NCBI GenBank assembly: GCA_007375535.1
Contig: VMEM01000004.1
Coordinates: 22,545 to 86,544, forward strand
Length of the DNA stretch: 64,000 bases
DNA from: Parcubacteria group bacterium LiPW_41
Lineage (GTDB): Bacteria > Patescibacteriota > Minisyncoccia > UBA6257 > GWB1-50-10
Reading direction: 5' to 3'
The position numbers and the translations under genes are program-made. A model generated the notes under the pieces. That model was not told where the DNA came from, searched no databases, and worked only from the letters and a program-made list of their open reading frames with translations. How positions within the stretch are numbered: the first letter of the stretch is position 1; every line of letters starts with the position of its first letter. Shown piece after piece: positions 9,496 to 30,008 of this stretch.

Positions 9496-9523
9496 TTGAA
9501 AATCGGTCTTGAAAAGGTATAAT
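9496..9523 (+). promoter_or_regulatory. sigma70-like promoter TTGAAA-16-TATAAT driving the surface-protein gene via a ~340-nt leader
   Basis: ttgaaa atcggtcttgaaaagg tataat, with near-consensus -35/-10 and 16-nt spacer. Confidence 0.4.
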
Positions 9524-9869
9524 CGGTATATTCCCACTTGGGAGCTTGGTGTGAGGCCTCGCAACCAAAAAGGAGCAAAAAGATGCTTGTATAAAGGAAG
9601 TTTTGCACATTTCTTTATACAAGCGTCGTTTATGCACTTTTTGCTATCTCACTCCAACAGAGTGAGAATTTTTATTTACCACCAATCCACTGTTTCTCTT
9701 TCGCTTCTTTTATTGCTCCGGATCCTCACTTCATGGAGTCGCAACAAAAGGTCCGAAAGCTAGGAGAATAGTGTTCTGACACAACAGAAAGGTCGAGTTC
9801 GCCTCGCGCATTCTTAAGGGGCGCGGGAATACGAACAAAATTATCCCAAAAGAAAAAAACAAAAAATAA

Positions 9870-12800
9870 ATGTCAAAGTTAACTTATAAAATCGCGACTG
9901 CTAGTATTGCGGTTATGACAATCGCATCACTTTCAGCACCAGCGTTTGCTCAAGTTTCAACTTCAGACCTTCAAGCTCAGATCGCAGCACTTCAGGCGCA
10001 GCTTACGCAGCTCCAGGGTGGTTCGTCAGCGAGCTCATATACTTTCACCAAAAACCTCACAGTTGGTGCAAAGGGAGAAGATGTGAAGCAGCTTCAGAGT
10101 ATTCTTATTGCTGGTGGCTATCTTAAAATAGCCGCTCCAACTTCATTCTTTGGTCCAGCGACCAAGGCAGCTGTCATCGCGTGGCAGAAAGCAGTTGGAA
10201 TTTCTCCTACCTCAGGATTTGTAGGAGCATTAAGCCGTGCAAAGCTTAATGGTAGTTCAGTTGTAACGCCAGGCGTTCCAGCAACGGACTCATATCTTAA
10301 AGTAGAGGTAGTGCCATCACTTGGTGGTACGATCCCATCAAGCTCTTTATATAACAAAGTCTTGAACCTCAAGCTTACCGCAGGAAAAGACGCAGTTGTT
10401 GTGACGGGTATCACCGCAACTCGTGGTGGATACATCGCAAACACTCGTATTAACGGCGTGAGCGCGTGGGACGAAGCAGGAAAGCGCTATGGAAACATTG
10501 TGACTTCTCTTACTTCAGACGGAAAAGTAACAGTGAACTTCGGTTCAGATCCAATGACTGTTCCAGCAGGAACAACAAAGAATCTTTCTGTTGCTATCAA
10601 CCTCGATTCAACAGCAACATCAGCCTCAGTAAACTTTGGTTTGATGTCAGCATCTGATATCAAGGTATCAGGAACCGCTCCAGTACAGGGAACCTTCCCA
10701 ATGATTGGCGGAACCTATTCAGTTGTCGACGGTTCAGCATCACTTGGTGACGTTCGCGTTTCAAATGACACCGTTAGCGGTATGTCAACTTCAAGCGCTC
10801 AGACATCATCTGTTGATGGAAACGTAGACATTGGTGATACACAACGTGAGGTGTTCAAACTCAAATTGACTCAGAACAACTCAAAAGAAGCAGTATATGT
10901 AAAGAACGTAACCCTTTATGTTGGTGGCAACATTGTTGAATCAACTGATATAAAGAACTGGAAATTGTATTCCCAGGAAGGAACCGTTCTCGCAACTGCA
11001 GAGCGTTCGATTGATCGTAACGTAACCTTCAATCTTGCGACTCCTTACATGATTGACAAGGGTCTTTCTCGAACTCTTCCAGTGAAGGCTGATATTGTTG
11101 ACGGTTCAGGCCGTTACTTCCAGGTATTTGTACAGAACGACTACGATCTCGTAGTAACCGGTGCAACAACTGGATCATCAGTTCTCTTAACTGACTCAAG
11201 TGGAGGAAGTCTTACTCAATCAGACACACAGGACAATACTTCTGGCTACTTCAAGATGAAGCAAGGCGGACTTACTGTCTCAAAGTCACCATCATCACCA
11301 AGCGGATCAATTGCTCCATCAGCAACTAACGTTGTTCTTGGTTCATTTGATGTAAAGTCTTCAGGCGAACAGCTTGAACTCCGCAAGATGGCGATTCGCG
11401 TCGTTCGCAGTGCAGCTGCTCCAGTTCTTACTGGTTCAATTACTGTGAAAGATGCAACCACCGGTGAAACCTATTATTCAGTATCAGCAGATACTACTGG
11501 TTTGCAGAGCACAACAACTCCATCAAGCTGGTCTTCATCTGATCAAATGACACTTTCGAGCTACATTCCGCTTTCAAGCAATCAAACTCGAACACTTCAG
11601 GTATTGGGTAGTGTTTCATCAGCGGCAACCTCTGGTACCTATAAAGTACACATTGGAGACTTCTATGCAAAGCGTTTCTCAACAAATGATTACCAGGATG
11701 TAGCAACGGGTGTCACATCGGCAAACCAGCTTTCCTTGCAAGACGTAACTCTTACAGTTACAAAGAATGCATCATTTGCGAATACCAATCGTGCAGCAGG
11801 TGCAACCAACGTAAAAGTTGCGGAGTTCAACCTCCAAGGATCTTCAGCCGATGATATTCAGGTGAATACGATTTCATTGAACATTACTACAAGCACAAAC
11901 TTCCAGAACGTAAAAGTTATGGATGGAACAACCCAACTCGGTAACACGGTTGGAACTCCAAGTGCAACTGGTAACAGCTTCACAGTAAACCTCGTTGTTG
12001 CAAAATCAGCAACAAAGTTGATCTCTGTGTATGCTGACATCGTTTCAAGTGCAACTGGTAACTCAGTTGTTTCGATTGCGGCATCTGGCGTAAGTGGATA
12101 CGGAAAGGATTCTGGAAAGGCATTAAGCTCAACTCCAGTATCTGCAACCCCAGGTCAGACTATTGCAATTGGTACACCTTCAGTAACCATCGCATCAAGC
12201 GATAACTCAGCTCTTACTTCGAAAGTTTTGATTGCTGGTACAACTGGCGTATCACTTGGTGATATCAAGTTCTCAGCAACAAACGAAGATCTCGTTTTGA
12301 GAAAAATCACTCTTAACCTCACTTCAGCTTCCACTTCATTGTGGTCACAGGATGCGGTTAATGGTAACTTCGTTTCAGTAAAACTTTATGATGGATCAAC
12401 CGAACTCGGTTCTTCATCAGTAGTAAGCGGTGTTGCGTTAATCACAATTCCAGAGGCAAAGTGGGTAACCTTGCCACAAGGAAGCGACAAGATCTTAACC
12501 GTAAAGGCAGATCTTAGCGCAAACACAGCAATCTCAAGCCAATCAGTATTCCGTGCAACTGTAACAAGTTCATCAACCACTAATCTTGAAATTAGCTCAG
12601 CATCACTCGGAATCATGGATACCGGCGTAACAATTTCAAGCGCTGCAACGAACTACTATAAAGTTCAAGCGGTTGCTCCAACAATTGCTGCTGGTTCTGG
12701 TTTCTCAGCAAACACCGTAGGTGCAGCTGACTCAGAAATCGGCCGTGTAACCGTAGGAAAGCAAGGAGATCGCAACGTAATCCTTACCGGACTCACATTG

Positions 12801-13226
12801 CGTGTTCAGATGACTGGTGCACATGCGTCTTCATCAATCACAACCTTTACTCTTAAAGATGGTGATTCTGGAGCAACTGTTGCAACAACATCTCAGACAC
12901 TCTCTGGTCCTTCAGGATCAACCTCGACTGTCTTTACCTTTGCTTCAACCACTATTACGACAACCAAGACATATAAGCTCTTTGCTGATACGTCAAACAT
13001 TCGTACTGGTGTAGCATCAACGGATCATCCAAACGTTTTGGTTGACTTCGTAATGCCAGCAACTGGATATAGCTCAAGCGATACAGCTGATCTCTGGACC
13101 GATGCAAACGTAACGTACGGCTATGACATCTACAATCCAACTCTTACCACATATTCTGGTTTGAAGAATATGAACAAGAATTCGGATAATGCAGATACCA
13201 TCCGTCTCGGAACGAACACCTACTAA
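9870..13226 (+). CDS. large Ser/Thr-rich secreted surface (S-layer-like) protein with N-terminal peptidoglycan-binding domain
   Basis: signal peptide ...SAPAFAQ; PG_binding_1-like GAKGEDVKQLQSILIAGGYL....FGPATKAAVIAWQKAVGI; then ~950 aa of S/T/G/V-rich beta-type sequence. Confidence 0.8.
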   Translation: MSKLTYKIATASIAVMTIASLSAPAFAQVSTSDLQAQIAALQAQLTQLQGGSSASSYTFTKNLTVGAKGEDVKQLQSILIAGGYLKIAAPTSFFGPATKAAVIAWQKAVGISPTSGFVGALSRAKLNGSSVVTPGVPATDSYLKVEVVPSLGGTIPSSSLYNKVLNLKLTAGKDAVVVTGITATRGGYIANTRINGVSAWDEAGKRYGNIVTSLTSDGKVTVNFGSDPMTVPAGTTKNLSVAINLDSTATSASVNFGLMSASDIKVSGTAPVQGTFPMIGGTYSVVDGSASLGDVRVSNDTVSGMSTSSAQTSSVDGNVDIGDTQREVFKLKLTQNNSKEAVYVKNVTLYVGGNIVESTDIKNWKLYSQEGTVLATAERSIDRNVTFNLATPYMIDKGLSRTLPVKADIVDGSGRYFQVFVQNDYDLVVTGATTGSSVLLTDSSGGSLTQSDTQDNTSGYFKMKQGGLTVSKSPSSPSGSIAPSATNVVLGSFDVKSSGEQLELRKMAIRVVRSAAAPVLTGSITVKDATTGETYYSVSADTTGLQSTTTPSSWSSSDQMTLSSYIPLSSNQTRTLQVLGSVSSAATSGTYKVHIGDFYAKRFSTNDYQDVATGVTSANQLSLQDVTLTVTKNASFANTNRAAGATNVKVAEFNLQGSSADDIQVNTISLNITTSTNFQNVKVMDGTTQLGNTVGTPSATGNSFTVNLVVAKSATKLISVYADIVSSATGNSVVSIAASGVSGYGKDSGKALSSTPVSATPGQTIAIGTPSVTIASSDNSALTSKVLIAGTTGVSLGDIKFSATNEDLVLRKITLNLTSASTSLWSQDAVNGNFVSVKLYDGSTELGSSSVVSGVALITIPEAKWVTLPQGSDKILTVKADLSANTAISSQSVFRATVTSSSTTNLEISSASLGIMDTGVTISSAATNYYKVQAVAPTIAAGSGFSANTVGAADSEIGRVTVGKQGDRNVILTGLTLRVQMTGAHASSSITTFTLKDGDSGATVATTSQTLSGPSGSTSTVFTFASTTITTTKTYKLFADTSNIRTGVASTDHPNVLVDFVMPATGYSSSDTADLWTDANVTYGYDIYNPTLTTYSGLKNMNKNSDNADTIRLGTNTY

Positions 13227-13255
13227 TAGTCATTTCTGACTTTAGTAATGTGTTG

Positions 13256-13290
13256 CCCCGCCAGTCCATTGGACTGGCGGGGTTTCGTTT
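13256..13290 (+). terminator. intrinsic terminator (27-nt perfect palindrome ccccgccagtcca-t-tggactggcgggg + T tract)
   Basis: 13-bp perfect arms; near-identical copy at 61712-61738. Confidence 0.6.
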
Positions 13291-13301
13291 ATAATAGAGA
13301 T

Positions 13302-13556: not shown

Positions 13557-13559
13557 GCT

Positions 13560-14897
13560 TTGCACTTTTTCTCCAGTAAGTTAAACTTACTGGTAATGGA
13601 TTATTTTAAAGCCTCGCGATTTTTTTTGTTTGCCGCAATCTTTGCGGTAGTTATCGTGACATCCTCAACATTGTTTCCATTTATCGTGGGAAAATATGTA
13701 TTTTTTCGTGCGTGTGTAGCGTTTGCTACAATATTTTTCTCCCTTGGGATTCTTTTTCAGGATCAAAAAGATGAAATGATAAAAAGGATGAAGGAGATAA
13801 TAAAGCATCCTTTAGCTATTGGTGTCGCTGCCTTTGTCGCCACATTTGTTCTTGCAGGATTTTTTGGAGTAAACCCGTCTGCCTCATTTTGGTCTAACTT
13901 TGAACGTGGTGAGGGAGGTTTTCAAATAATAAGTTTAGGAATATTCTTCTTTCTATCGACAATTCTTTTAAGAGACTGGAAGGCGTGGAAAAAGTTTTTT
14001 ATTCTTTTTATAACTGCTTCGGCTCTTGTAATGTTATATGGAGTGGGTGCCGGGCTTGATATGAATGGGTTTGTTGGAGAAAAGTTCTCTACAAATATGC
14101 GGTTTGCAGGAAGTTTGGGAAATCCCGCATATATTGGAACTTATATGCTGTTCGCTGCTGCATTTGCACTTATTTGTGCATTTCGCGCAGTGACAAAAGA
14201 AGAAAAAAGATGGTTTTTTGTGATCGCGGGACTCGCAGTGTTTTCTTCGTGGGCATCTCAAACGCGTGGTGCATTTTTGGGACTCGCGGCAGCGCTATTT
14301 GTTTCTCTTCTTTTTGTTGCATATAACAATCAGAAATATAAAAAATATATTTTGGGAGTGTTAGGATTTTTAGTAGTTGTCTCAGCACTTTTGATGACCC
14401 AACGAAACAATCCAACATTCCAAAAAATCCCAGGATTCCGAGTGTTCACTATTTCACTTCAAGAACAAACGGCACAGACTCGTTTGTGGACATGGAATGC
14501 GGCTCTAAAAGGGGTGAAAGATCGACCAGTGTTTGGGTGGGGCCCAGAGAATTTCAGTGTGGTGTTTGATAAATATTTTGATCATCGTCATTACAATCTA
14601 AAGACAGGGGGGGAAACATGGTTTGATAGAGCACACAGTTTGTATATTGACTCACTCGTTCAAACGGGGATTGTTGGATTTTTAGGGCTTCTCACAATGC
14701 TTGGTGCATTCTTTGTGGTGTGGAAAAAGTCGGTATTGTTAAAGGGAATTTCAATAGAGGAGCGAGGGGTGTTGTTGGGGTTGATGATAATGTATTGCGT
14801 GCAGGGATTTGTGTTGTTTGATATTCTTCCAACATACATTGCGTTGTTCTCATTTCTTGCATATATGGCGTCGCGAACACAAAAAGAATCAAAATAA
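13560..14897 (+). CDS. Wzy_C / O-antigen-ligase-family membrane protein (candidate O-oligosaccharyltransferase or polymerase)
   Basis: ~10 TM helices, large loop with ...SWASQTRGAFLGLAAALFV... as in Wzy_C (WaaL/PglL/WsaB) proteins. Confidence 0.6.
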   Translation: MHFFSSKLNLLVMDYFKASRFFLFAAIFAVVIVTSSTLFPFIVGKYVFFRACVAFATIFFSLGILFQDQKDEMIKRMKEIIKHPLAIGVAAFVATFVLAGFFGVNPSASFWSNFERGEGGFQIISLGIFFFLSTILLRDWKAWKKFFILFITASALVMLYGVGAGLDMNGFVGEKFSTNMRFAGSLGNPAYIGTYMLFAAAFALICAFRAVTKEEKRWFFVIAGLAVFSSWASQTRGAFLGLAAALFVSLLFVAYNNQKYKKYILGVLGFLVVVSALLMTQRNNPTFQKIPGFRVFTISLQEQTAQTRLWTWNAALKGVKDRPVFGWGPENFSVVFDKYFDHRHYNLKTGGETWFDRAHSLYIDSLVQTGIVGFLGLLTMLGAFFVVWKKSVLLKGISIEERGVLLGLMIMYCVQGFVLFDILPTYIALFSFLAYMASRTQKESK

Positions 14898-14898
14898 T

Positions 14899-15450
14899 AT
14901 GAAACAAATAATTACGTGGATAGTAATTTGTGTAAGCGTTCTCGGTTTTGTGTATGGGTCTATAAAGCCATATAAAAAGGCAGCAGCATATGTTACCGCA
15001 GTAAAAAGTGGCGCAACCTCGGTTGAGGGGTTCACTGATGCGTTTAAAGCAGCATTTGAGTATCCATCTCCAGTTGGACAAGATGAACTAATACGCTTTA
15101 TCTCAAGTGATATCATGAATGTGGTTGCTGAAGGAAAGAACGATGAGACAGTGGCGAATAAACTTACCGATTTCATCCATACTTATGCTGATCCAAAGAT
15201 TGAATCAAAGGTGGGTATGAATTACACACAATTAGTAATGATTTTGGGCACTATTCATACATACAAATGGAAACAATATCAAAAACCAGAAGATTTTGCA
15301 TTGGCAATGCAATATTTTATTCAGGGATATAATATAAATCCTGATCGTCCGCAGTTCTTGATTGGACTTGTGGATTTGTATGAAGCATCAGGGCAAAACG
15401 ACAAGGCAGACGCAGTAAAACAACACATTGCCGAACTTTGGGAGAGATAA
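14899..15450 (+). CDS. membrane-anchored hypothetical protein
   Basis: internal ATG at 14899 (MKQIITWIVICVSVLGFVYG) gives a TM-anchored 183-aa protein; the upstream part of the track ORF overlaps the previous gene. Confidence 0.45.
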   Translation: MKQIITWIVICVSVLGFVYGSIKPYKKAAAYVTAVKSGATSVEGFTDAFKAAFEYPSPVGQDELIRFISSDIMNVVAEGKNDETVANKLTDFIHTYADPKIESKVGMNYTQLVMILGTIHTYKWKQYQKPEDFALAMQYFIQGYNINPDRPQFLIGLVDLYEASGQNDKADAVKQHIAELWER

Positions 15451-15459
15451 TAATGGACT

Positions 15460-16509
15460 ATGAAGCGAGTTTCGCTAATTATCCCAACATACAACGAAGC
15501 AGAAAATATAGAGACTCTCATTAAAGAAATTGATGGAGTAGTAAATAAATCATTTGTTGATTTTGAATATATTATTGTTGATGATAATTCACCCGATGGT
15601 ACTGGATCTATTGCAGAAAAATTAAAAGAAACTTATCCTGTGCGCGTTATTCACCGAAGTGGAAAGTTAGGTTTGGGTAGTGCTGTTATTGAGGGATTTA
15701 ATCTATCTACATATGAATATATTGGGGTAATGGATGGAGATCTGAGTCACGATCCAATAATTTTGAATGATATGGTAGGGGAGCTTGAAAATTGTGACAT
15801 AGTGATTGGGAGCAGGTTTAATAAGGACAGTCTTGTTGAAAATTGGAAGTGGTGGAGAAGAGTTGTCTCTGTTGTTGGGGTTTTTCTTGCAAAAATGATT
15901 TCTGGCGTTGGTGATCCTCTCAGTGGGTATTTTATGTTGAAGCGATCTGTAATTGATGAGGTGGAATTGGAGACAAAGGGATATAAAATTCTCTTTGAAA
16001 TTTTAGTAAAAGGAAAGTGGAGCACTATAAAGGAGCTTCCATTTACATTTCGTATGCGCAGACATAGTGTTTCAAAATTAAACATGAGCGAATATATTTT
16101 ATTCGCAAAGCAAATTGCATTGTATGCCATTTATAAATATCAGTCTTTTTTTAGATATTTTGTAATTGGTAGCACGGCATTTATTCTTGATATGGGTTCT
16201 TTGTATGTATTAAAAGAATATTTTGACATACACCCAGCATTTGCAGTTGCATTAAATCAGATATTTGTCCTCTCATATATATTTATATTAAACAAAATTT
16301 GGACATTCAGTTCTAAGGAAAAAACCAGACACTCCCTTATCCGATTTGTATCTCTTCAAATGTTCAATTATTCCTTTGGTATTCTTTGGATGTGGATTTT
16401 TTATGAACAAGTAGGAATTAATTATCTTATTGCGAGGATTGCGAACATTATTCTTTTTACTGCATGGAATTTTCTTCTTTATAAGAAGTGGGTCTTTAAA
16501 AAGAATTAG
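15460..16509 (+). CDS. polyprenyl-phosphate sugar synthase (GT2, Dpm1/Ppm1-like) fused to a GtrA-like 4-TM domain
   Basis: SLIIPTYNEAENI...IIVDDNSPDGT...MDGDLSHDP motifs of DPM1-type GT2; C-terminal four hydrophobic helices (GtrA family). Confidence 0.8.
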   Translation: MKRVSLIIPTYNEAENIETLIKEIDGVVNKSFVDFEYIIVDDNSPDGTGSIAEKLKETYPVRVIHRSGKLGLGSAVIEGFNLSTYEYIGVMDGDLSHDPIILNDMVGELENCDIVIGSRFNKDSLVENWKWWRRVVSVVGVFLAKMISGVGDPLSGYFMLKRSVIDEVELETKGYKILFEILVKGKWSTIKELPFTFRMRRHSVSKLNMSEYILFAKQIALYAIYKYQSFFRYFVIGSTAFILDMGSLYVLKEYFDIHPAFAVALNQIFVLSYIFILNKIWTFSSKEKTRHSLIRFVSLQMFNYSFGILWMWIFYEQVGINYLIARIANIILFTAWNFLLYKKWVFKKN

Positions 16510-16540
16510 TTTTTCCCAACGTATTAAAGATTGAATCTCT

Positions 16541-16600
16541 TCTAGGGATTCGATTTTTTCCTATCCGTCATCCTCGCGAAAGCGGGGATCAAATCTTATT
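16541..16600. terminator. convergent-gene terminator region (two weak hairpins)
   Basis: gaatc-tcttctagg-gattc+T6 and atcctcgcgaaagcggggat between convergent genes. Confidence 0.35.
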
Positions 16601-20294: not shown

Positions 20295-20298
20295 AAAA

Positions 20299-21531: not shown

Positions 21532-21533
21532 TC

Positions 21534-22478
21534 ATGAAAAAAATTCCTTGCGATATTTGTGGTACCGTTGATTTTGAAAAAGTTTTCATGCAAAAAGATG
21601 TCCGCATAAAAAGGGATGGCGCTGATGAATTTCTCGTTGTCAGATGTAAAAATTGCGGCCTTGTTTGCACAGATCAACTTGCCATACCGGAAGATATCTC
21701 AACTTATTATGGCGAGCAATATTTTTCGCAATCCAAGAGATTAAATAATATTTTATTTTTTTTAAAAAAAATAAAAACATTTTTTTTAACAGAAAAACCA
21801 ACTGGAAAATTTTTTAGAAAGAGAAAACAATTTTTCGGAAAAAGTCAGGGAAATTACTTAAATATTGGTTGTGCGACTGGCGTCTTAGAAAAGTTTTTAA
21901 TAAAACAATTTCCTGGATGGAAATTTTATGGAGTGGAACCTGATAGGTTTGCATATGAAGAAGCAAATAAAATAGAAGATTTTAATGTAAAATGTGGAGT
22001 TTTAGAAGAATCTGGTTTTGGTGAAAAATTTTTTGATTTGATTCTTTTAAATCAAGTATTGGAACACGTCCCAGGTCCGAGCGCAGTGTTGGTTGAGTGT
22101 TTTAGAATTTTAAAAGATGACGGAATTTTAATTATTGCTGTTCCAAATTTTGATTCTCTTGGTGAAAAAGTTTTTGAGGAAAACTGGTATCACTTAGATC
22201 TTCCAAGGCATCTTTTTCATTTTAATAAAAAGACATTGAATAAAATGCTAGAGCGGGCTGGGTTTTTTCAGGAAAAAATTGAAAATGAGGTTCTTTTTGG
22301 ATCTTTTTTTAAAAGTATTTTAATAAAGAGAAAACTTGATTCAGAAAAATATAACAAAATCATTTCTTTTTTTGTTTTAATTTTTGATTCATTTCCATTT
22401 TTTTATACTCCAGTCGAATTATTTTTTGGTGGTGGACTATTTTCTGTTTTTAAAAAGAAATATGCAAAAACGTCCTAA
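21534..22478 (+). CDS. class I SAM-dependent methyltransferase with N-terminal Cys4 zinc-ribbon
   Basis: CDICG...CKNCG zinc ribbon; LNIGCATGVL motif I; FDLILLNQVLEHV motif II region. Confidence 0.6.
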   Translation: MKKIPCDICGTVDFEKVFMQKDVRIKRDGADEFLVVRCKNCGLVCTDQLAIPEDISTYYGEQYFSQSKRLNNILFFLKKIKTFFLTEKPTGKFFRKRKQFFGKSQGNYLNIGCATGVLEKFLIKQFPGWKFYGVEPDRFAYEEANKIEDFNVKCGVLEESGFGEKFFDLILLNQVLEHVPGPSAVLVECFRILKDDGILIIAVPNFDSLGEKVFEENWYHLDLPRHLFHFNKKTLNKMLERAGFFQEKIENEVLFGSFFKSILIKRKLDSEKYNKIISFFVLIFDSFPFFYTPVELFFGGGLFSVFKKKYAKTS

Positions 22479-23409
22479 GGTTTTTATTTTAATTTTACAT
22501 TGGCAGAATTATGATGTTACAAGAAAATGTCTTAGTTCTCTAAAAAAAATAAAATACCCAGATTATGAGGTTATTGTTTTAGATAACGCATCAACAAATG
22601 AGTCAGCGAAAAGGTTAAAGCAAGAATTTCCTGAATTCCTTTTCTTTTTTAATAAAAAAAATAATGGATATGGTGCTGGAATGAATCCAGGAATAGAATA
22701 TTCCTTGAACAATGGGGCTGAGTATATTTTTTTACTTAATAACGATGTTATTGTAACAAGCGAAAATTTTATAGAGAAACTCGTTTTTCTAATGGATGGC
22801 AAGAAAGAGATAGGGATTTGTGGTCCTAGGTTGTTATTCGAAAACGGAAAGTACCAGAGATCATATCGTAGTGTTTTTTTGTCCTTAGCTTTGGGATTTT
22901 ATTCTTCACAAAAAGTTGTCTCTTTTTTTAGAAAAGTTCTCAGTTTGCCTGATAAGGGTAATATTTCACATAAAGTTGATTGGCTCAATGCGGTTGCGCT
23001 TTTTATAAGGGCGGATGTATTTAGAAAAATTGGGAGAATGGATGAATGTTTTTTTCTTGGCGCTGAAGATGTTGATTTGTCGATGAGGGCGAAGAAAAAC
23101 GGATGGGAAACATGGTATTGTGCTGAATCAGAGCTTGTTCATTTAAGCTTCGTGAGCCATGAGAATAATGACGGTGTTGGCTACGATAAATATTGGGTTG
23201 AGAGTACTATTCTTTTTTTAAAAAAATATTATCCACTCTATTTAGTATTTATAGTTAAATTCCTCATGTTTTTTGGTCTCGCTCTTCGTGGAATTCAATG
23301 GATGCTTTTAAGTTTATTTAATAATACCTATCTGAAAAGGGCAAAAAGATTTTTTACGATTGGTTACCTTTCATTGGTTATGTGGCCAAAATGTACAGAT
23401 AAAATATGA
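22462..23409 (+). CDS. GT2 glycosyltransferase (rhamnosyltransferase-like)
   Basis: VFILILHWQNYDVTRKCL...VLDNASTNES...NNGYGAGMN...LLNNDVIV; GT2 DXD context. Confidence 0.7.
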   Translation: MQKRPKVFILILHWQNYDVTRKCLSSLKKIKYPDYEVIVLDNASTNESAKRLKQEFPEFLFFFNKKNNGYGAGMNPGIEYSLNNGAEYIFLLNNDVIVTSENFIEKLVFLMDGKKEIGICGPRLLFENGKYQRSYRSVFLSLALGFYSSQKVVSFFRKVLSLPDKGNISHKVDWLNAVALFIRADVFRKIGRMDECFFLGAEDVDLSMRAKKNGWETWYCAESELVHLSFVSHENNDGVGYDKYWVESTILFLKKYYPLYLVFIVKFLMFFGLALRGIQWMLLSLFNNTYLKRAKRFFTIGYLSLVMWPKCTDKI

Positions 23410-24308
23410 CGACATCCGTTTTTATTGTGGTTTTAAATTGGAATAATTTTAATGACACAAAAAAGTGCATTGATTCTGTATTGGGGTCAACTTTTGATGA
23501 TTTTCTTATCTTGCTAATTGATAATGGCTCATCTGATGATTCTTTAGTGAAGCTTAAGAAGGAATTTGAATATAACAAAAAAGTTACTTTTTTATCTAAT
23601 CAAAGAAATTTTGGATATGCAGGAGGGGTTAATCCAGGAATTAGGACGTTTCTCTCTGAAAATAAATTCAAATATCTTTGGGTATTAAATAATGATATTG
23701 TTGTTGATAAAAACGCACTTAAATTTTTAGTTGATGGTTTGGCGAGTAATACTGATTCTAAAATAGCAGGACCAACTATTTTTTTTGAAGGAACAGAAAA
23801 AGTTATGGAACAATACTATAAATTAAATCTGTTTCTTGGCAAATATGAAGTCAAAAAAAATTTAGATAGATCAAAAATAATCAGATTAGAGAATAATAAA
23901 AAAAATTTTATTGGTGGTGCCGCAATTTTTCTCGAGAGAGATGCTGTTGAAAAAATTAACATAATTCCCGAAGAATATTTCATGTACAATGAAGACGTGG
24001 ATTGGCACATGAAAATAAAAGGAGAAAAATGGGGGTATCTTTATATTGGACCCGCTCACGTTTGGCATAAAAGGAGTGCGTCTTCTGGGGGAAGAAAATC
24101 AATTATGCCAGATTATTATGATTCAAGAAATTTTCTTTATTTCATAAAGAAATTCTATCCTCTTTGGTTGCCCTATGAGTTATTAACATCTTTATTTAAT
24201 AAAGTTCTTCCCAAAATATTACGGAGAGAGTGGATTAGGTTGAGGTATGTTTTTTGGGGATTTTATGATTTTTTTGCTGGAAAAATGGGAATTTTTGAAA
24301 GAAAATAA
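23406..24308 (+). CDS. GT2 glycosyltransferase (paralog of previous)
   Basis: VFIVVLNWNNFNDTKKCI...LIDNGSSDDS...NFGYAGGVN...VLNNDIVV. Confidence 0.7.
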   Translation: MTTSVFIVVLNWNNFNDTKKCIDSVLGSTFDDFLILLIDNGSSDDSLVKLKKEFEYNKKVTFLSNQRNFGYAGGVNPGIRTFLSENKFKYLWVLNNDIVVDKNALKFLVDGLASNTDSKIAGPTIFFEGTEKVMEQYYKLNLFLGKYEVKKNLDRSKIIRLENNKKNFIGGAAIFLERDAVEKINIIPEEYFMYNEDVDWHMKIKGEKWGYLYIGPAHVWHKRSASSGGRKSIMPDYYDSRNFLYFIKKFYPLWLPYELLTSLFNKVLPKILRREWIRLRYVFWGFYDFFAGKMGIFERK

Positions 24309-24310
24309 TT

Positions 24311-25117
24311 ATGAAAATTTCAGTAATTACTCCATTTTATAATGGATCAAAATTTATCAAAAAGTGTATCCAAGGAGTACAATCTCAATCTGTCACTGAT
24401 TTTGAATATATTATCATAGACGATGGATCTGAGGATGAAGAGCTTTTGATGCTTAAAGGCGCCTCAAAAGAATTTTCCAATGTCACTATTTTTTCGACAA
24501 AAAATGAAAAACAGGCTGCGGCAGTAAATTTTGGAATCAAGCAAGCAGGGGGAGAATATATAGCATTTTGTGATCAAGATGACTGGTGGTTGCCAGAAAA
24601 ATTAGAAAAACAAGCAAAATTTTTGGATGAACATCAAGACATTGATCTTGTTTATTCAGATGCTTTTTTAGGAGATGAGGCTGGAACACTGAGGCATGAA
24701 ACATGGATGCAATCTCGAAAAGTCTTTGTGTGTACTGGGGGATATACTGAGTGTGCTAAGAAGCTTTTCGAGAGAAATTTTATTTGCGCGCCATTAGTCG
24801 TTATGGTTAGAAGTAATGCGCTATTAGCCATCGGGGGTATAAACGAGCAATATACTAGTGCTTATGACTATGATTTATGGTTCCGATTATTAGAGTGGGG
24901 TTCTAAATTTGCTTACTTAGATGAGCCACTTGCTGTTTGGAGGTCTCACTCGCAGAATGAAAGTGGAGACGTGCGAAGAGCAAAGAAAATACAGACAAAA
25001 ATACTTCTGAATTTTCTTATTCGAAATAAAAAATTTGTTTTTAAACATCCGATATTGGTCGTAATAAAATTTTTTAGGATTCTTTTAGGTTTTTTAGTGA
25101 ATTACAATCCCTACTAA
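24311..25117 (+). CDS. GT2 glycosyltransferase
   Basis: ISVITPFYNGSKFI...IIIDDGSEDE...CDQDDWW. Confidence 0.75.
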   Translation: MKISVITPFYNGSKFIKKCIQGVQSQSVTDFEYIIIDDGSEDEELLMLKGASKEFSNVTIFSTKNEKQAAAVNFGIKQAGGEYIAFCDQDDWWLPEKLEKQAKFLDEHQDIDLVYSDAFLGDEAGTLRHETWMQSRKVFVCTGGYTECAKKLFERNFICAPLVVMVRSNALLAIGGINEQYTSAYDYDLWFRLLEWGSKFAYLDEPLAVWRSHSQNESGDVRRAKKIQTKILLNFLIRNKKFVFKHPILVVIKFFRILLGFLVNYNPY

Positions 25118-25125
25118 AACAGAAT

Positions 25126-26337
25126 ATGGAATTTATTAGAAAATATAAGAGTTTATTTATTTCATTGCGATCAAATGTAGTACGCAAGAAGTTTTTGATC
25201 CAAAAAACAATTGTAAAATGGATAAAAATCGTGTTTCTTGTTGTTGAAATTCCATTTGAATTGGTGGGGGATGCCCTTTTCTTTTGGAGACGATGTTTAA
25301 AAAAGAAATTTATTAACCCACAAAAAATTCTTATTGTTCGCATTGATCAATTTGGAGACGTGTTATTTTCCACGTTTTTGCTTCCTATTTTGAAAAAAAA
25401 GTATCCAGAATGCGAAATTGATTATTTGGTAAATCCAAAAACGTTAGCGATTTTAAAAAACAATCAGTATATACAGAATGTTTATTTGTGGGACGAGATC
25501 GCCCTTCATTTTATTGCGGGGAGAAAGGAAGGATCAAAAACCTCAATATCCCAAGCACTAAAGAATAATCAAGAAGTAATCAAGAAGCTTAGGGGAGAAA
25601 ATTATGATTATGTAATTAATGGACGAGCGTTTGTTCCCAGCTCAAATATATGGTGGAAATTTATAAAACCAAAACGCTTGATAGCATTTGATATATCCGA
25701 GCAGAGTTTTCTCGCTGATTATTGGGCGGAATATGGCCTTAAAAGTGAGGAGTGGGAAAACTATATGAATCTTTTGCTTCCACTTGGCATTGCAAAAAAC
25801 GAATTTTTTTATGAGCCAGTATTCAATAATTTTGATGATTCTATTTTTAATAAATACGAATTTCAGTCATTGAGGGGGAAAAACTACATAGTGTGTGCGC
25901 CCGTTTCTTTTGATAAGGACAGGCAATGGGAAGTTGAGAGCTGGCGAAAAGTCATTGTTGCATATCGTGATGCTGGTAATGCGGTTGTATTCACTGGTAT
26001 ACAAAGTCAGCTTGAATATATAAAAAATATTTTGGATGGAGTTGATGGAAAAGATATTATTGTTGCCACCAATCTCACACTTCCTGAGTTGGGTAGTATT
26101 TATAAAAAAGCAAAGTTATTTTTAGGGATCGAATCATTTCCTGCGCATCTTGCACTTGCGCTTAAAAAACCAATTATCTGTCTTATGCGAAACGATGCAT
26201 ATTATTTGAAAGGATTTTCTTCGGCCAAAACTGCCTCAGCTCGCTCAATGATACCGCTTCTTGAGGGACGAGTATTTGCGTTGGATATAAAAACAACCTC
26301 CGTAGAGAAGGTTGTCGAAATTGTGAAGTCTTTGTAG
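25126..26337 (+). CDS. GT9-family glycosyltransferase (heptosyltransferase-like)
   Basis: KILIVRIDQFGDVLFSTFLLPILKKKYPECEIDYLV is the hallmark N-terminus of GT9. Confidence 0.55.
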   Translation: MEFIRKYKSLFISLRSNVVRKKFLIQKTIVKWIKIVFLVVEIPFELVGDALFFWRRCLKKKFINPQKILIVRIDQFGDVLFSTFLLPILKKKYPECEIDYLVNPKTLAILKNNQYIQNVYLWDEIALHFIAGRKEGSKTSISQALKNNQEVIKKLRGENYDYVINGRAFVPSSNIWWKFIKPKRLIAFDISEQSFLADYWAEYGLKSEEWENYMNLLLPLGIAKNEFFYEPVFNNFDDSIFNKYEFQSLRGKNYIVCAPVSFDKDRQWEVESWRKVIVAYRDAGNAVVFTGIQSQLEYIKNILDGVDGKDIIVATNLTLPELGSIYKKAKLFLGIESFPAHLALALKKPIICLMRNDAYYLKGFSSAKTASARSMIPLLEGRVFALDIKTTSVEKVVEIVKSL

Positions 26338-27882
26338 TTATTCAACCATTGTTTTTGGATTAATTTTTTGGAGCAATGGTTCTTTTTGTAAAACGAGAAG
26401 TCCAAGATATATGACTCCTCCAAATCCTATAGTGAATACTACGTGCGGGGAAATAAGAGAAATAAGTAGGCACGCAATTCCCATTCCAACCGATGCGAGA
26501 ATTATTTTCTTTATGTGAGGAAATAATGAAAAAGGAATAATTTTTTTCATACTGATCCAAAGCCACCCATTTGAAAAAAGTTGTGCAATAAGTGTTGCAA
26601 AGGCGGATCCCGTGACGCCATAGGGGGGAATAAGTAAGAGATCGAGGATTAGATTTGCAACCGCGCCAAGTCCATATGCAACAATAAATGTTTTTTGTTT
26701 GTGATGTGCAAATAAAATATTTCCTAAAATTGTTCCCGTAAACACAAGTGGTACGGTAAGGAGTAATACCTGAAATGGCATAGAGGCATCAATAAATTTA
26801 TTTCCAAAAATAAAAACTGTAAGAGGTATACCAACAACAATGCCACCCACAAGAACGGGGAACGCAAACATCATAGACAGAGAGAGTGCCTTTTCTACTG
26901 TTCGTTTCACCTTTTCAACTTTTCCTTCCGCGACATACCTGCTCACTATTGGAAAAATGCTTGCTGCAAAAAGTGCTGGAAGAACATAGAGGAACATTAC
27001 TGGGCGCTGAGCAGCACCATAGAGTCCTAAGTCGTGAGCGGTGCGAAACCAACCAATAACTAATGTATCTACATTAATCATTAAATTACCAAAGAGCCCC
27101 ATTAGTGCAAATGGCCACGAACTAAAAAACACTAATCGTGCATACTGCAGGCTGAAATTACTTAAAAGTCCAGAAAAATCTTTTCGCAGTATATAGAACG
27201 TGATGAGTGTTCCAATTATTATTCCGGTTGTGTAGCCATAAGCTAAAAATTTTGCTGAGGGAAAAACAAGCAATGCAGCGATTCCAAGAATAGTAATAAG
27301 TCCATCGGTAATAATGTTTGCTCCCGACTCAATTTGCATCTTGTTTTTTGCTCGAGCAATAGAAAAGGCAAATCCACGAAGAGAATCAAACGCGAGAAGC
27401 ACGCTTACCGTAAGAAGAAGTTCTTGAATTCCTTTTACATTTGTGAGATATGGTCCCACAAACATAGTGATGCCTATGGTGACGGTAAGTGCAATAAGCT
27501 TAAGAATAAATGTAGTGGATGCGTAAATCTTGGTTTTCTCTGGTTCTTGCACCGCCTGACGAGTAAGTATTCCAGAGAGACCCATATCAGAAAATACTCC
27601 AAAAAGACCCGCAAAACTTAATGCGTATGAAAAAACACCGTATCCTTCGGTGCCCAATATGCGTGCTGCATACATTATCATAATTGCCCGAATGGAACGA
27701 CTTACAATTGTTCCAAGGGTGAGCCAAAATGTATTTTTTGCTATTGTCTGCGATTCTGTTTTGTTCTCAAAAAGGAATGACTTAATCTTCGGTATCATAG
27801 ATATATCCCCATTGTACCCGTCTTTCCCCAAAAACTGAATATCTCCACTATTTTCCAAAAGAATATAAATTGATAAATACAT
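26338..27882 (-). CDS. Wzx-type polysaccharide flippase (MOP superfamily)
   Basis: 14 TM helices; N-terminal NTFWLTLGTIVSRSIRAIMIMYAARILG motif of polysaccharide biosynthesis proteins. Confidence 0.75.
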   Translation of the reverse strand: MYLSIYILLENSGDIQFLGKDGYNGDISMIPKIKSFLFENKTESQTIAKNTFWLTLGTIVSRSIRAIMIMYAARILGTEGYGVFSYALSFAGLFGVFSDMGLSGILTRQAVQEPEKTKIYASTTFILKLIALTVTIGITMFVGPYLTNVKGIQELLLTVSVLLAFDSLRGFAFSIARAKNKMQIESGANIITDGLITILGIAALLVFPSAKFLAYGYTTGIIIGTLITFYILRKDFSGLLSNFSLQYARLVFFSSWPFALMGLFGNLMINVDTLVIGWFRTAHDLGLYGAAQRPVMFLYVLPALFAASIFPIVSRYVAEGKVEKVKRTVEKALSLSMMFAFPVLVGGIVVGIPLTVFIFGNKFIDASMPFQVLLLTVPLVFTGTILGNILFAHHKQKTFIVAYGLGAVANLILDLLLIPPYGVTGSAFATLIAQLFSNGWLWISMKKIIPFSLFPHIKKIILASVGMGIACLLISLISPHVVFTIGFGGVIYLGLLVLQKEPLLQKINPKTMVE

Positions 27883-27884
27883 TT

Positions 27885-27920
27885 GTTAATACTTACCGGC
27901 GACCGCCGGTAAGTATTAAC
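27885..27920. repeat. 36-bp perfect palindrome A1 (GTTAATACTTACCGGCG-AC-CGCCGGTAAGTATTAAC) in divergent promoter region
   Basis: 17-bp perfect arms; second copy at 28566-28601 differs by a symmetric (compensated) T/A change. Confidence 0.7.
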
Positions 27921-27956
27921 ATCACAAGTGATATAATAAATAAGCAAAGAAAAAGA

Positions 27957-28541
27957 ATGAAAGAGAAGATAAATACAATAAAAAGGAAAAAGAGACGATG
28001 GGGGACAAAATCAATGCTTATTCTTGAATTATTGAAGGAGGGGGCATTTTGTACTGCTGATCTGTTTGGGGAAATGTTTTTAAATCCAATAACACCAAAA
28101 CAACGATATGCACGTGCAATTTTTGGACGACAAATAAAACATGAAGAATTTCACATTCCAAGAAATACCAAGATCACACTGTATAGGACGTTATATAACT
28201 TAGAAAAACAAGGATTAGTAGAAAAGAAGAATGGAGCGTGGGAGATAACGCGTGACGGAAAAGAAAATATTATAGAATCTTTACAGATAAATAGGGGGAG
28301 AAAATATATTTGTAAAAAATCTGAATACTATACAATTGTTGCTTTTGATATACCAGAAAAAATAAAAGCGAAGCGAGAGTGGTTGAGAGAGGCACTTGTG
28401 AATATGGAATTCTCTTTATTACAACAAAGCGTTTGGATAGCAAAAAAGAAAATTCCCGGAGAGTTTATTAAAGATCTACATAATATGAGAATTTCTAAGT
28501 TTGTTCATATTTTTGAGGTGACCAAACACGGAACGATATAA
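27957..28541 (+). CDS. winged-helix transcriptional regulator, PaaX-like (C-terminal Cas2/VapD-like ferredoxin-fold segment)
   Basis: N-terminal wHTH-like LILELLKEG...LYRTLYNLEKQGLVEK; C-terminal TIVAFDIPEKIKAKREWLREALVNMEFSLLQQSVWIAK pattern; ATG 27957 preferred because the track start 27870 runs through the palindrome. Confidence 0.4.
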   Translation: MKEKINTIKRKKRRWGTKSMLILELLKEGAFCTADLFGEMFLNPITPKQRYARAIFGRQIKHEEFHIPRNTKITLYRTLYNLEKQGLVEKKNGAWEITRDGKENIIESLQINRGRKYICKKSEYYTIVAFDIPEKIKAKREWLREALVNMEFSLLQQSVWIAKKKIPGEFIKDLHNMRISKFVHIFEVTKHGTI

Positions 28542-28565
28542 TACAATATAAAAGTAATATTATTT

Positions 28566-28601
28566 GTTAATACATACCGGCGACCGCCGGTATGTATTAA
28601 C
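28566..28601. repeat. 36-bp perfect palindrome A2 (GTTAATACATACCGGCG-AC-CGCCGGTATGTATTAAC)
   Basis: direct repeat of A1 including the shared flank atttgttaatac...; lies between convergent genes. Confidence 0.7.
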
Positions 28602-28682
28602 ATGTGCGGGCACACTTCAATATAGAACTAGAAAATAAAGAGAGCTCACCGATTCGGCGAGTTCTCTTTATTTGTGTGTGAT

Positions 28683-30008
28683 TTAAATAAGTTTTACGAA
28701 TATCATTTTCACTGTTTTAAGAACAATGAAGTCGTCGGTGATGGTTGAACGATGTTTGATGTAATAAATATCGTATGCGAGTTTTTCTTTTGAATCCTCA
28801 ACCGATGCGCCATAGCGGTAATTTACTTGTGCGTGTCCAGTGAATCCTGGGCGAATGATGTGGCGAATATTATAAAACGGAATTTCTTTTTCAAGGGTCT
28901 TGGTGAATTCAGGGCGTTCTGGGCGTGGGCCAACGAGTGAGATGTCTCCGCGAAGCATATTCCATGCTTGTGGAAGTTCGTCGAGATGTGTATATCTCAA
29001 AAACTTTCCAACTTTTGTGGTGCGGTCATCATTTTGTGTTGACCATTGTGCACCATCTTTTTCTGCGTCGGCGCGCATACTTCGGAATTTATAAAGTGTA
29101 AACGGAACATTATTTTTTCCTATTCGTGTTTGTGAATAAATAACTGCACCTCGTGAAGAAAGTTTTATAAGAAGTGCGATAAGAAGTGAGGGGATAAAGA
29201 AAATTAAAATAATTAGAATTGCAGCAGCGATGTCTGTGGTGCGCTTTACCATATCATAAATTGGTCTACGAACGGTGATGTGTTCGATAAACCAACTTTC
29301 GTCGAGTTCATCAATTGGTTCTTTTTCAAACACTGATTCGTAAAAATTTGGGAATGTCATCACCGAGGTTTCAAGTGGAAGAAGTTTATAGAGTGCTGAA
29401 AGTGTCGTTGGGTCGGTGAGCGCATTTTTTTGTATAACAATTAATCGTGAATCTGTCTTTGTTATTATCTCAGGAAGAGATTCAAGCGCTTCTTTTGTCA
29501 CCACTTCAATCCATTTAGTGACGTTGAATCCAACCTGTGGGTTTTCTTTTAAAAATTGAACAGTAGAAGAGAGGAGTGGAGTTGATCCGAGAATGATGGT
29601 ATTCGCAGCACTTCGAACAAAAAGTGTTCGAACGCGCATTCTCCAGAAATAAAGAAAAAGGAATGAAACAACCCCAAAGATAATGAGGTTGGTCTTTGGC
29701 ATAACTCCGAACACGGTAGGGAACAAATAGAAGCAAATCACCGAAAGCCCAGAGGCAAGAATGATGCCCCCAAACAGTGCCTTAATGAGCCATTCCCGCC
29801 CTCTGAATGCCTTGTAGCGGTAGAGATCGCCCCAATAGAAGACTATGAGCCATAAGACGAAGACAACAGAGAATGGAACAACGTGGAGATTCCAGTTTTC
29901 ATAAAAAAGGCCACTATCGCGGTAACGAATGAGAAGGGTAACCGCAAGGGCCACATACAGCACTATGATATCTCCAATAAGGAGAAGGGATTTTTTGTAG
30001 ATTCCCAT
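28683..30008 (-). CDS. initiating polyprenyl-phosphate glycosylphosphotransferase (WbaP/WsaP-like bacterial sugar transferase)
   Basis: C-terminal Bac_transf motifs RIGKNNVPFTLYKFRSM, DELPQAWNMLRGDISLVGPRPERPEF; N-terminal TM bundle. Confidence 0.85.
   Translation of the reverse strand: MGIYKKSLLLIGDIIVLYVALAVTLLIRYRDSGLFYENWNLHVVPFSVVFVLWLIVFYWGDLYRYKAFRGREWLIKALFGGIILASGLSVICFYLFPTVFGVMPKTNLIIFGVVSFLFLYFWRMRVRTLFVRSAANTIILGSTPLLSSTVQFLKENPQVGFNVTKWIEVVTKEALESLPEIITKTDSRLIVIQKNALTDPTTLSALYKLLPLETSVMTFPNFYESVFEKEPIDELDESWFIEHITVRRPIYDMVKRTTDIAAAILIILIFFIPSLLIALLIKLSSRGAVIYSQTRIGKNNVPFTLYKFRSMRADAEKDGAQWSTQNDDRTTKVGKFLRYTHLDELPQAWNMLRGDISLVGPRPERPEFTKTLEKEIPFYNIRHIIRPGFTGHAQVNYRYGASVEDSKEKLAYDIYYIKHRSTITDDFIVLKTVKMIFVKLI

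Follow-up and report, generated by a model that had tools for sequence, protein, structure and literature searches.

The question raised by this locus is what acceptor a Wzy_C-family membrane enzyme serves when its gene lies close behind that of a large, Ser/Thr-rich surface protein. The DNA analyzed here, referred to as the window, is a 64,000-nt stretch from Parcubacteria group bacterium LiPW_41, a member of the candidate phyla radiation (CPR, or Patescibacteria). An earlier note on this DNA had proposed a system for O-glycosylation of the surface protein, which we call SURF as a working name (1118 aa, at 9870-13226). In Pfam and NCBIfam scans of the window proteins, every gene that the earlier note had named was present where it had been placed, with matching families. 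The locus is a mosaic, composed of a conserved head, two accessory modules and a distal end, and the head consists of monocistronic SURF, then the Wzy_C enzyme, then a small membrane-anchored partner with tetratricopeptide repeats (TPR). A surface-protein glycosylation system is a plausible account of these genes and the most likely one; the particular reading that we rank first, that Ser and Thr residues of SURF are O-glycosylated by the Wzy_C/TPR pair, stands at about an even chance. The features of the head, with the elements that surround them, are as follows.

9496-9523, plus strand: sigma-70-like promoter, TTGAAA-16-TATAAT, 11 of 12 consensus matches
9530-9869, plus strand: structured 5' leader of SURF, with a hairpin at about 9590-9630, a terminator-like hairpin with a U-run at 9647-9667 and an ultra-conserved 180-nt segment at 9690-9869
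9870-13226, plus strand: SURF, a secreted, Ser/Thr-rich surface protein of 1118 aa with multiple Ig-like domains, recognized by PG_binding_1, its composition and an AlphaFold2 model
13255-13283, plus strand: intrinsic terminator of SURF, a 13-bp stem with 10 G-C pairs, directly after the SURF stop codon
13302-13556, plus strand: open reading frame (ORF) of 84 aa with a GIY-YIG domain (53.8 bits)
13596-14897, plus strand: Wzy_C-family enzyme (PF04932) of 433 aa with 12 transmembrane (TM) helices, candidate en-bloc glycan transferase
14899-15450, plus strand: membrane-anchored Wzy_C partner of 183 aa with two C-terminal TPR repeats, recognized by a family profile

The association of SURF with the Wzy_C gene was followed in 16 SURF-centered loci with enough downstream DNA (found with closer SURF sequences, after a 16-sequence SURF alignment gave no usable conserved stretch), in six loci looked up separately from individual Wzy_C homologues, and in 80 metagenome loci reached from Wzy_C, of which 39 extend upstream for 3 kb or more. 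Among the 16 SURF-centered loci, 11 have a Wzy_C-family gene directly behind SURF, at SURF identities down to 28%, and the order SURF, Wzy_C, TPR recurs to that same depth. Directly upstream of Wzy_C, a large PG_binding_1 or SURF-family gene was found in four of the six individual look-ups, the other two being cut by contig ends. In the Wzy_C-started sample, SURF is adjacent in 17 of the 39 loci, 15 times directly upstream on the same strand and twice divergently (L087 and L091), and the pair also occurs away from the ClpB backbone discussed below (L010, L016, L022 and L026). The claimed linkage of surface-protein gene and Wzy_C gene is thus upheld, and in several genomic contexts.

What lies behind Wzy_C and TPR is far less constant. 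The downstream genes belong to sugar pathways in most loci, with content that is unrelated from locus to locus; elsewhere they include AsnB-like, GT4, FkbM methyltransferase, GDP-mannose dehydratase, CTP_transf_3, DegT and Rml genes. In the window, some 11.4 kb separate Wzy_C from wzx, and the enzyme gene belongs to the conserved head, outside the variable cassette. Wzy_C keeps an identity of about 39-47% from Paceibacteria to Jorgensen-, Nomura- and Wolfebacteria, even as the sugar genes beside it are fully replaced. On this ground it has the look of a glycan-promiscuous en-bloc transferase and not of a Wzy polymerase, which favors an en-bloc ligase or an O-oligosaccharyltransferase. As a separate observation, an asparagine-synthase-like amidotransferase of about 600 aa lies within a few kb downstream of Wzy_C/TPR in five loci (L003, L006, L017, L022 and L024) and is missing from the window; it recalls wsfA of the Paenibacillus alvei slg locus (PMC2943079).

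The Wzy_C assignment is secure by Pfam (PF04932, 64.6 bits with the cutoff at 31.7, matching aa 225-377 of an ORF of 445 aa), and the AlphaFold2 model (pLDDT 88.5, pTM 0.91) shows 12 TM helices, with TM9 and TM10 joined by a large loop. In Foldseek the sole significant match of this model was the ligase WaaL (7tpg; E 1.3e-8, TM score 0.57-0.60, 15% sequence identity). A search of the PDB with the single sequence gave zero matches; a profile built from 33 family members scored WaaL (E 3.8e-12) about equally with a chain of 9rmk named "Oligosaccharyltransferase" (E 2.2e-11). This chain is presumably Neisseria PglL, since the residue numbering fits; the PDB code 9RMK itself was not mentioned in the literature searched. 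Invariant among the 33 members are R224, R296, D344 and H347. R224, R296 and H347 align with PglL R224, R298 and H349 in 9rmk and with the corresponding residues of 7tpg; the three PglL residues correspond to WaaL R215, R288 and H338, and their roles have been described (PMC3643930). The profile aligns to 9rmk over residues 168-365, including the PglL_B region, and retains its GxxG, with PglL Q178 replaced by an invariant Asn and the PglL-specific N180 by Ala. This homology supports a transferase of the WaaL/PglL type but leaves its acceptor unnamed. Among the window proteins scanned we found no Wzz-type chain-length regulator, no LCP ligase and no second Wzy-like protein, and likewise no genes for lipid A or the lipopolysaccharide (LPS) core, apart from a GT9-family enzyme that falls below the heptosyltransferase cutoffs.

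The partner gene starts one base past the Wzy_C stop codon. A profile of the partner family finds TPR proteins (CTPR3, 1.7e-9; LapB, 5e-6; OGT, 4e-5), the match covering roughly the final 70 residues. In other lineages (L010, L016, L019 and L022, with many metagenome loci) the partner continues the C terminus of Wzy_C in a single fused protein of 666-830 aa. In nearly all loci with downstream sequence, either the partner or a fused TPR stands beside Wzy_C. The 12-TM core of WaaL has both termini in the cytoplasm. A thirteenth TM helix following such a core would bring the TPR to the outer side of the membrane, next to the catalytic loop. Separately, two or three tandem Wzy_C paralogues occur in L021, L023, L027, L044, L048, L070, L073, L086, L097 and L102, generally laid out as a fused Wzy_C-TPR protein (~750-830 aa), then a split Wzy_C, then TPR, and mostly directly behind SURF; the L023 tandem ends at a contig edge, and the window itself carries the split form only.

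SURF agrees with its earlier description as a Ser/Thr-rich secreted protein with an N-terminal peptidoglycan-binding domain: Ser and Thr make up 27% of its residues and Cys is absent, PG_binding_1 is found at aa 69-120 (37.4 bits), and the N terminus resembles a Sec signal peptide that ends in ...SAPAFA before a Gln. The AlphaFold2 model (pLDDT 85) consists of a coiled coil, the peptidoglycan-binding domain and about seven beta-sandwich, Ig-like domains. A known S-layer fold was looked for and rejected, the fold search returning generic multi-Ig proteins only, with the S-layer protein EA1 of Bacillus anthracis at rank 42; a sequence search of the PDB gave the peptidoglycan-binding domain, spurious matches to Kelch designs, and nothing else. 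SURF is 100% identical to a hypothetical protein recorded for LiPW_41. It has more than 330 homologues, and the named sources of those listed are all Patescibacteria/CPR or unclassified metagenome bins. Their length is mostly ~1100-1190 aa, even at 28-50% identity.

Codon usage sets SURF apart from 31 other window genes: AAC supplies 71% of its Asn codons (23% elsewhere), AAG 59% of its Lys codons (27%), and among Gly codons GGG is absent (19% elsewhere) and GGT reaches 47% (23%). SURF is apparently highly expressed, to judge from these codons, and the codon bias together with the strong terminator and the conserved leader points to an abundant, monocistronic structural protein. The signal-peptide-like N terminus, the wall-anchoring domain, the large multi-domain body and the probable high expression are features of S-layer proteins, and SURF is a candidate S-layer subunit that may form a two-dimensional lattice.

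The transcript of SURF bears on this point. Its terminator, which had been described as strong, is the 13-bp stem listed above, and of 20 homologous loci, 19 have a comparably strong hairpin 3' of the stop codon. The companion claim, that SURF is strongly promoted, calls for a correction. The promoter-like site does exist, with 11 of 12 consensus matches, and both the -35 hexamer and a -10-like hexamer are retained in the relatives L002 and L009. However, it lies ~345 nt from the ATG, with the terminator-like hairpin (9647-9667) within the intervening leader. Across the region, promoter-like sites show no overall enrichment (23 observed, 30 expected). The leader folds with a z-score of -5.7, and its hairpins are preserved in L002 and L009 though the stem sequences differ. 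Its last part, 9690-9869, is the most conserved DNA of the region, with 96% identity to L002 and 91% to L009, whereas the ClpB coding sequence reaches only 84% and 79%. Nothing meaningful was matched in Rfam, even at E <= 10, and blastn and nhmmer searches beyond the close relatives detected the leader in L001, L002 and L009 only. Positions 9496-9675 form a promoter, hairpin and terminator-like unit upstream of the 180-nt segment. The leader region could be a small RNA, an attenuator or an mRNA-stabilizing leader. No GGAGG-like, purine-rich Shine-Dalgarno motif precedes the SURF start, the final 30 nt (9840-9869) being an A-rich tract.

Two other genes flank SURF closely, and neither was retained as part of the system. 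The 84-aa GIY-YIG ORF stands between the SURF terminator and Wzy_C, so that Wzy_C does not follow immediately after SURF, as had been supposed. L002 and L009, the closest relatives, have no such ORF at this position, and L005 (13496-13753) and L006 (12457-12786) do have one; PDDEXK_3 ORFs fill the same gap in L018, L020 and L026. The GIY-YIG ORF was rejected as a component on these grounds and is probably a selfish or accessory insertion. In unrelated lineages, small nuclease-like ORFs recur just past the terminator that ends SURF homologues, which suggests that this gap is a preferred landing site of selfish elements. On the other side, a polytopic membrane protein of ~243 aa (8687-9418, plus strand) overlaps the 3' end of clpB by ~58 nt and matched no family in our scans. 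A homologue stands behind clpB in 15 related loci; among these are L004 and L014, which both lack Wzy_C, and the protein was rejected as a component because it tracks ClpB even there.

The remaining genes of the locus fall into accessory module 1 (GT2-GtrA, GT-C and GT2; GT, glycosyltransferase), accessory module 2 (RmlC and RmlD, methyltransferases, three GT2s, a GT9 and Wzx) and a distal end with a regulator-like gene and the initiating phosphoglycosyltransferase (PGT). They are, in order:

15460-16509, plus strand: GT2, similar to polyprenyl-phosphate sugar synthases, fused to GtrA (Glycos_transf_2, 99 bits; GtrA_DPMS_TM, 68.5 bits)
16660-18147, minus strand: polytopic GT-C-like glycosyltransferase of the PMT/ArnT type, a weak assignment (PMT_2, 22.5 bits; cutoff 26.1)
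18131-18808, minus strand: Dpm1/AglJ-like GT2, partner of the GT-C (Glycos_transf_2, 103.5 bits)
18918-19460, plus strand: RmlC, dTDP-4-dehydrorhamnose 3,5-epimerase (PF00908, dTDP_sugar_isom, 226 bits)
19464-20294, plus strand: RmlD-type 4-reductase (RmlD_sub_bind, 219.6 bits)
20299-21531, plus strand: nucleotide-sugar 3-C-methyltransferase of the TcaB9/MtmC/KijD1 type with an N-terminal zinc domain (Methyltransf_13, 75 bits; Methyltransf_14, 189 bits)
21519-22478, plus strand: second S-adenosylmethionine (SAM) methyltransferase (Methyltransf_23, 77.6 bits), with N-terminal Cys pairs in the translation (CxxC...CxxC)
22462-23409, 23406-24308 and 24311-25117, plus strand: three GT2 genes in a row (Glycos_transf_2, 64.6, 64.7 and 106.8 bits; cutoff 23.3)
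25126-26337, plus strand: GT9-family glycosyltransferase (Glyco_transf_9, 67 bits; heptosyltransferase models below cutoffs)
26338-27882, minus strand: Wzx-type flippase for lipid-linked oligosaccharides (Polysacc_synt, 125 bits; Polysacc_synt_3, 82 bits)
27870-28541, plus strand: protein with a PaaX_M/Cas2-like domain, possible regulator (PaaX_M, 48.8 bits)
28683-30008, minus strand: initiating polyprenyl-phosphate glycosyl-1-phosphate transferase of the WbaP/WcaJ/WsaP type (Bac_transf, 209 bits; TIGR03025, 336 against a cutoff of 295.6)

The picture of a single contiguous 20-kb locus does not survive comparison with close relatives, which carry or miss the two large modules independently. 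L002 has the GtrA/GT-C module, including the GT2-GtrA gene, but in the stretch examined no gene of the RmlCD-to-Wzx set, and L009 has the RmlCD-to-Wzx module and lacks the GtrA/GT-C module with its GT2-GtrA gene. The G+C content of the central cassette is 30-34%, that of the flanks 38-40%.

In module 1, a GT-C enzyme of the PMT/ArnT type with a partner GT2 had been proposed. The pairing is favored by GT2-GT-C fusions: many of 20 GT-C homologues carry an N-terminal GT2, and some match PF13231 or PF02366. The family assignment is weaker, PMT_2 falling below its cutoff and the family profile finding no significant match in the PDB (ArnT at E = 5). D46 is invariant in the GT-C family and, by our reading of the sequence, lies in the first loop. 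The Dpm1-like GT2 gene overlaps the GT-C gene by 17 nt; its product scores 108 bits with AglJ and 102 bits with dolichyl-P-hexose transferase, both under the cutoffs.

In module 2, the "two zinc-ribbon SAM methyltransferases" of the earlier note are both there, but the first is not the maker of an O-methyl cap. It matches sugar 3-C-methyltransferases of the PDB over its full length (MtmC, 4rv9, E 5.2e-85 over residues 10-408; 5t64, annotated "sugar 3-C-methyl transferase", 6.5e-73; 3ndi, 8.3e-72), and the product of the cassette is therefore probably a branched 3-C-methyl-6-deoxyhexose. Neither rmlA nor rmlB was found among the window proteins scanned. The first two of the three GT2s have weak, sub-cutoff matches to the rhamnosyltransferase subfamily TIGR01556. 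Pfam scans found no ABC transporter, such as Wzm/Wzt, in the cluster; it carries Wzx instead.

From the observed gene content and homologies, the conserved head and variable cassette, the catalytic triad and the TPR fusions, we infer an acceptor and a glycan composition as follows. SURF would be made from its own strongly terminated transcript, exported by Sec, and held to the wall by its N-terminal PG_binding_1 domain, with some seven Ig-like domains displayed. The WbaP-type PGT would start a glycan on undecaprenyl phosphate, which the three GT2s and the GT9 would extend in the cytoplasm with 6-deoxyhexoses; RmlC, RmlD and the 3-C-methyltransferase may supply a 3-C-methyl branched sugar. After Wzx had moved the lipid-linked glycan to the outer face, Wzy_C and its extracytoplasmic TPR partner would transfer it en bloc to the acceptor, most likely Ser and Thr residues of SURF and possibly other exported proteins as well. 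By a second route, GT2-GtrA, the Dpm1-like GT2 and the GT-C may add single sugars on the outer face from a polyprenyl-phosphate monosaccharide donor.

How well does the acceptor proposed here stand up? Lipid A and LPS genes have been reported absent from a Parcubacterium genome (PMC5220378); a classic WaaL acceptor is therefore unlikely, and the acceptors with precedent in this superfamily are proteins. PglL-type genes adjoin the genes of their pilin targets in 21 of 31 cases (PMC3643930), and S-layer genes are monocistronic and lie beside glycosylation clusters with low-G+C central genes (PMC2943079). Several observations weigh on the other side. Five of the SURF loci have no nearby Wzy_C gene, and 22 of the 39 loci in the Wzy_C-started sample have no SURF nearby, the recurrent neighbors there resembling RNase Y or phosphoglycerate mutase on a reading of their N-terminal sequences; given these 22 loci, the Wzy_C/TPR pair is a general CPR envelope function and not one dedicated to SURF by position. 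Upstream of SURF, most SURF loci conserve ClpB and the TM protein just as well, and inherited synteny could account for part of the SURF-Wzy_C adjacency. Between SURF and Wzy_C stand a strong terminator and the GIY-YIG ORF, so that co-transcription is not obvious. The SURF family has no invariant Ser or Thr outside the peptidoglycan-binding domain, T469 being the sole nearly invariant one. The Pfam scan of Wzy_C found no PglL_A motif (PF15864) at E <= 0.01, and WaaL and PglL score alike; TPR scaffolds, moreover, occur also in polysaccharide export machinery, to judge from the reference list of PMC2943079. A separation of O-oligosaccharyltransferases from WaaL-type ligases by sequence or fold was tried and did not discriminate, with equal profile scores and a Foldseek result that contained only WaaL. 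A reading of Wzy_C as an O-oligosaccharyltransferase accordingly has the Arg/Arg/His triad, which is common to WaaL and PglL, in its favor and the missing PglL_A motif against it; the proposed O-glycosylation of the surface protein keeps its synteny and its TPR fusions, and gives up the notion of a pair dedicated to SURF, which is next door in 17 of 39 loci.

Much of this evidence could be read otherwise. Wzy_C/TPR may be the polymerase or ligase of a wall-associated or capsular polysaccharide made by a Wzx/Wzy-type pathway, with SURF left unglycosylated, an alternative that we regard as unlikely, though less so than the others. SURF would then adjoin the pair through clustering of envelope genes, or the polymer would retain or organize SURF. 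A polymer-retained surface protein has a precedent in csaAB, beside sap-eag in Bacillus anthracis. A PGT, glycosyltransferases, Wzx and one Wzy_C protein are indeed the make-up of a Wzx/Wzy pathway, and the loci without SURF, the terminator between SURF and Wzy_C and the tandem paralogues of some genomes fit it too, as do the TPR domains of polysaccharide export scaffolds (reference cited in PMC2943079). However, Wzy polymerases co-vary with their repeat unit, and here the enzyme is conserved in a head far from wzx while the sugar genes are entirely different; the chain-length regulator and LCP ligase are missing from the window proteins scanned, and the invariant His and two Arg are the transfer triad of WaaL and PglL. 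Moreover, we know of no precedent for a Wzy_C enzyme that ligates glycans to peptidoglycan.

If the pair is instead a general O-oligosaccharyltransferase, its main targets would be other exported proteins, such as the type IV pilins abundant in CPR bacteria; SURF would be at most one of many substrates, and its adjacency mostly inherited synteny. Neisseria PglL is such a general enzyme, encoded apart from pilE (PMC3643930), Parcubacteria are reported to have type IV pilus genes (PMC5220378), Wzy_C/TPR is conserved in many contexts without SURF, and tandem paralogues could serve separate targets. Yet a pilin gene stood beside Wzy_C in none of the loci inspected, SURF is by far its commonest neighbor, and the adjacency outlasts rearrangement, change of backbone and inversion, which makes this account improbable. 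Least probable, to the point that we would be surprised by it, is the absence of any functional connection, with a generic, horizontally shuffled polysaccharide cluster that by chance came to lie next to the surface-protein gene, itself a conserved member of a syntenic backbone. The backbone Aminotran_5-SIMPL-HtrA-ClpB-TM-SURF is in fact syntenic across Paceibacteria, and the cassette has its lower G+C content and a gene content that varies among relatives. Wzy_C/TPR, however, belongs to the conserved and not the shuffled part of the locus, and stays with SURF in the loci off the ClpB backbone and in the divergent pairs (L010, L016, L022, L026, L087 and L091).

SURF glycosylation by Wzy_C/TPR thus remains the first-ranked reading, and it touches on an acknowledged gap, the composition of the CPR envelope (PMC5220378). 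That the locus would be unexpected in a reduced genome, as had been thought, is contradicted by the many glycosyltransferases and the rhamnose pathway already reported for a Parcubacterium; a glycosylated S-layer in Parcubacteria has also been speculated on (PMC5220378). S-layers of some Patescibacteria species are visible by microscopy (PMC13293708), and a preprint states that S-layer proteins are identifiable in Patescibacteria (10.1101/2024.05.28.596244). In the literature searched, the SURF-Wzy_C-TPR module is not described, no CPR surface-protein family is tied to a glycan-transfer enzyme, and no paper combines Parcubacteria with "O-antigen ligase". The analysis puts forward a coat-protein candidate that is widely conserved, together with a candidate pair for the transfer whose catalytic residues can be named, and it accounts for a common CPR layout in which a hypervariable sugar cassette comes after a conserved head; if the first-ranked reading is wrong, what is left is an ordinary Wzx-dependent wall polysaccharide cluster in a reduced genome. 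A bolder picture, rather unlikely to hold in all its parts at once, would make SURF the chief protein of the wall or S-layer in Paceibacteria-type CPR bacteria and Wzy_C with TPR the first CPR protein O-oligosaccharyltransferase, whose relaxed glycan specificity would let it load a strain-specific oligosaccharide from the hypervariable cassette onto SURF. The outcome would be a glycan-variable coat governing host attachment and evasion of phages and immunity, with the 180-nt leader as a new cis-acting RNA that controls or stabilizes the coat mRNA.

Other features of the window lie apart from this system. Just beyond the glycan cluster is a second very large exported protein, unrelated to SURF (31574-35986, plus strand, 1470 aa), which is strongly acidic and has a PKD domain and two lamin-tail (LTD) domains. 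The minus strand encodes a tRNA-Lys(CTT) at 55998-56071. At 56950-57221 on the plus strand lies a group I intron (Rfam RF00028, 84.8 bits), whose 5' part is overlapped by an ORF of 141 aa with HNH-like Cys/His motifs (56690-57115, plus strand); the surroundings of the intron yielded no host gene for rRNA, tRNA or protein.

Among known systems, the slg clusters are the closest in overall design, and we compared those of Geobacillus stearothermophilus NRS 2004/3a (SgsE, WsaA, WsaB, WsaP) and Paenibacillus alvei (SpaA, WsfB, WsfP, WsfH/WsfD). There, WsaA with WsaB, and WsfB, are the predicted S-layer O-oligosaccharyltransferases (PMC2943079). The likeness of WsaB and WsfB to Wzy_C/TPR rests on domain arrangement and published descriptions: a Wzy_C enzyme goes with a TPR module that is either split off (WsaA, 168 aa, and WsaB) or fused (WsfB), just as it is split here (183 aa and 433 aa) and fused in other CPR bacteria. 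Both kinds of locus have a WbaP-type initiating PGT, rml genes, rhamnosyltransferase-like GTs and a methyltransferase, together with a lipid-linked single-sugar side route (WsfH/WsfD there, GT2/GT-C here), a monocistronic target gene and low-G+C central genes; an AsnB homologue like wsfA is found in several CPR relatives (PMC2943079). The parallel with a methyl-capped rhamnan, drawn earlier, nevertheless breaks down: export is by Wzm/Wzt there and by Wzx here (PMC2943079), and in place of a chain-terminating 2-O-methyltransferase domain this locus has a nucleotide-sugar 3-C-methyltransferase. The present locus differs further in that the genes of target and enzyme are direct neighbors, the host is a CPR bacterium and the wall anchor of the target is PG_binding_1. 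S-layer proteins of Firmicutes are anchored by other wall-binding modules (SLH).

PglL and TfpO (PilO) share with this system the Wzy_C domain, the Arg-Arg-His triad, an enzyme gene that often lies beside the target gene, and an oligosaccharide donor that is initiated by a PGT and flipped by Wzx. They differ in having PglL_A (PF15864), N180 and Q178 where the CPR enzyme has no PglL_A match, Ala and Asn, and in the neighbor, which is a pilin there and a 1118-aa wall protein here. WaaL (7TPG) has the same 12 TM helices and a large outer loop with a conserved His. Its identity to Wzy_C is 15%, however, and its acceptor is the lipid A-core, whose genes were reported absent in a Parcubacterium, a host type described as monoderm-like and without LPS (PMC5220378). 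Wzy polymerases belong to the same Pfam clan and come with a similar composition of PGT, GTs, Wzx and Wzy_C protein; the enzyme of the present locus differs in being conserved independently of the sugar genes and outside the variable cassette, with a TPR partner present and a chain-length regulator absent nearby.

The accessory modules have counterparts of their own. Module 1 resembles GtrA/GtrB/GtrC, CsbB/GtcA/YfhO and Ppm1/Pmt in its GT2 polyprenyl-phosphate sugar synthase, GtrA-family domain and polytopic GT-C. It departs from them in a GT-C that is below the PMT_2 cutoff and without a significant solved relative, in having two synthase-like GT2 genes, and in being present in some close relatives only. 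The 3-C-methyltransferase of module 2 matches TcaB9, MtmC and KijD1 over its full length (E 5e-85 to 8e-72), with the same N-terminal zinc and C-terminal C-methyltransferase domains. Those enzymes serve antibiotic deoxysugar pathways, in contrast to the one found here, which is encoded beside RmlC and RmlD in a surface-glycan cassette.

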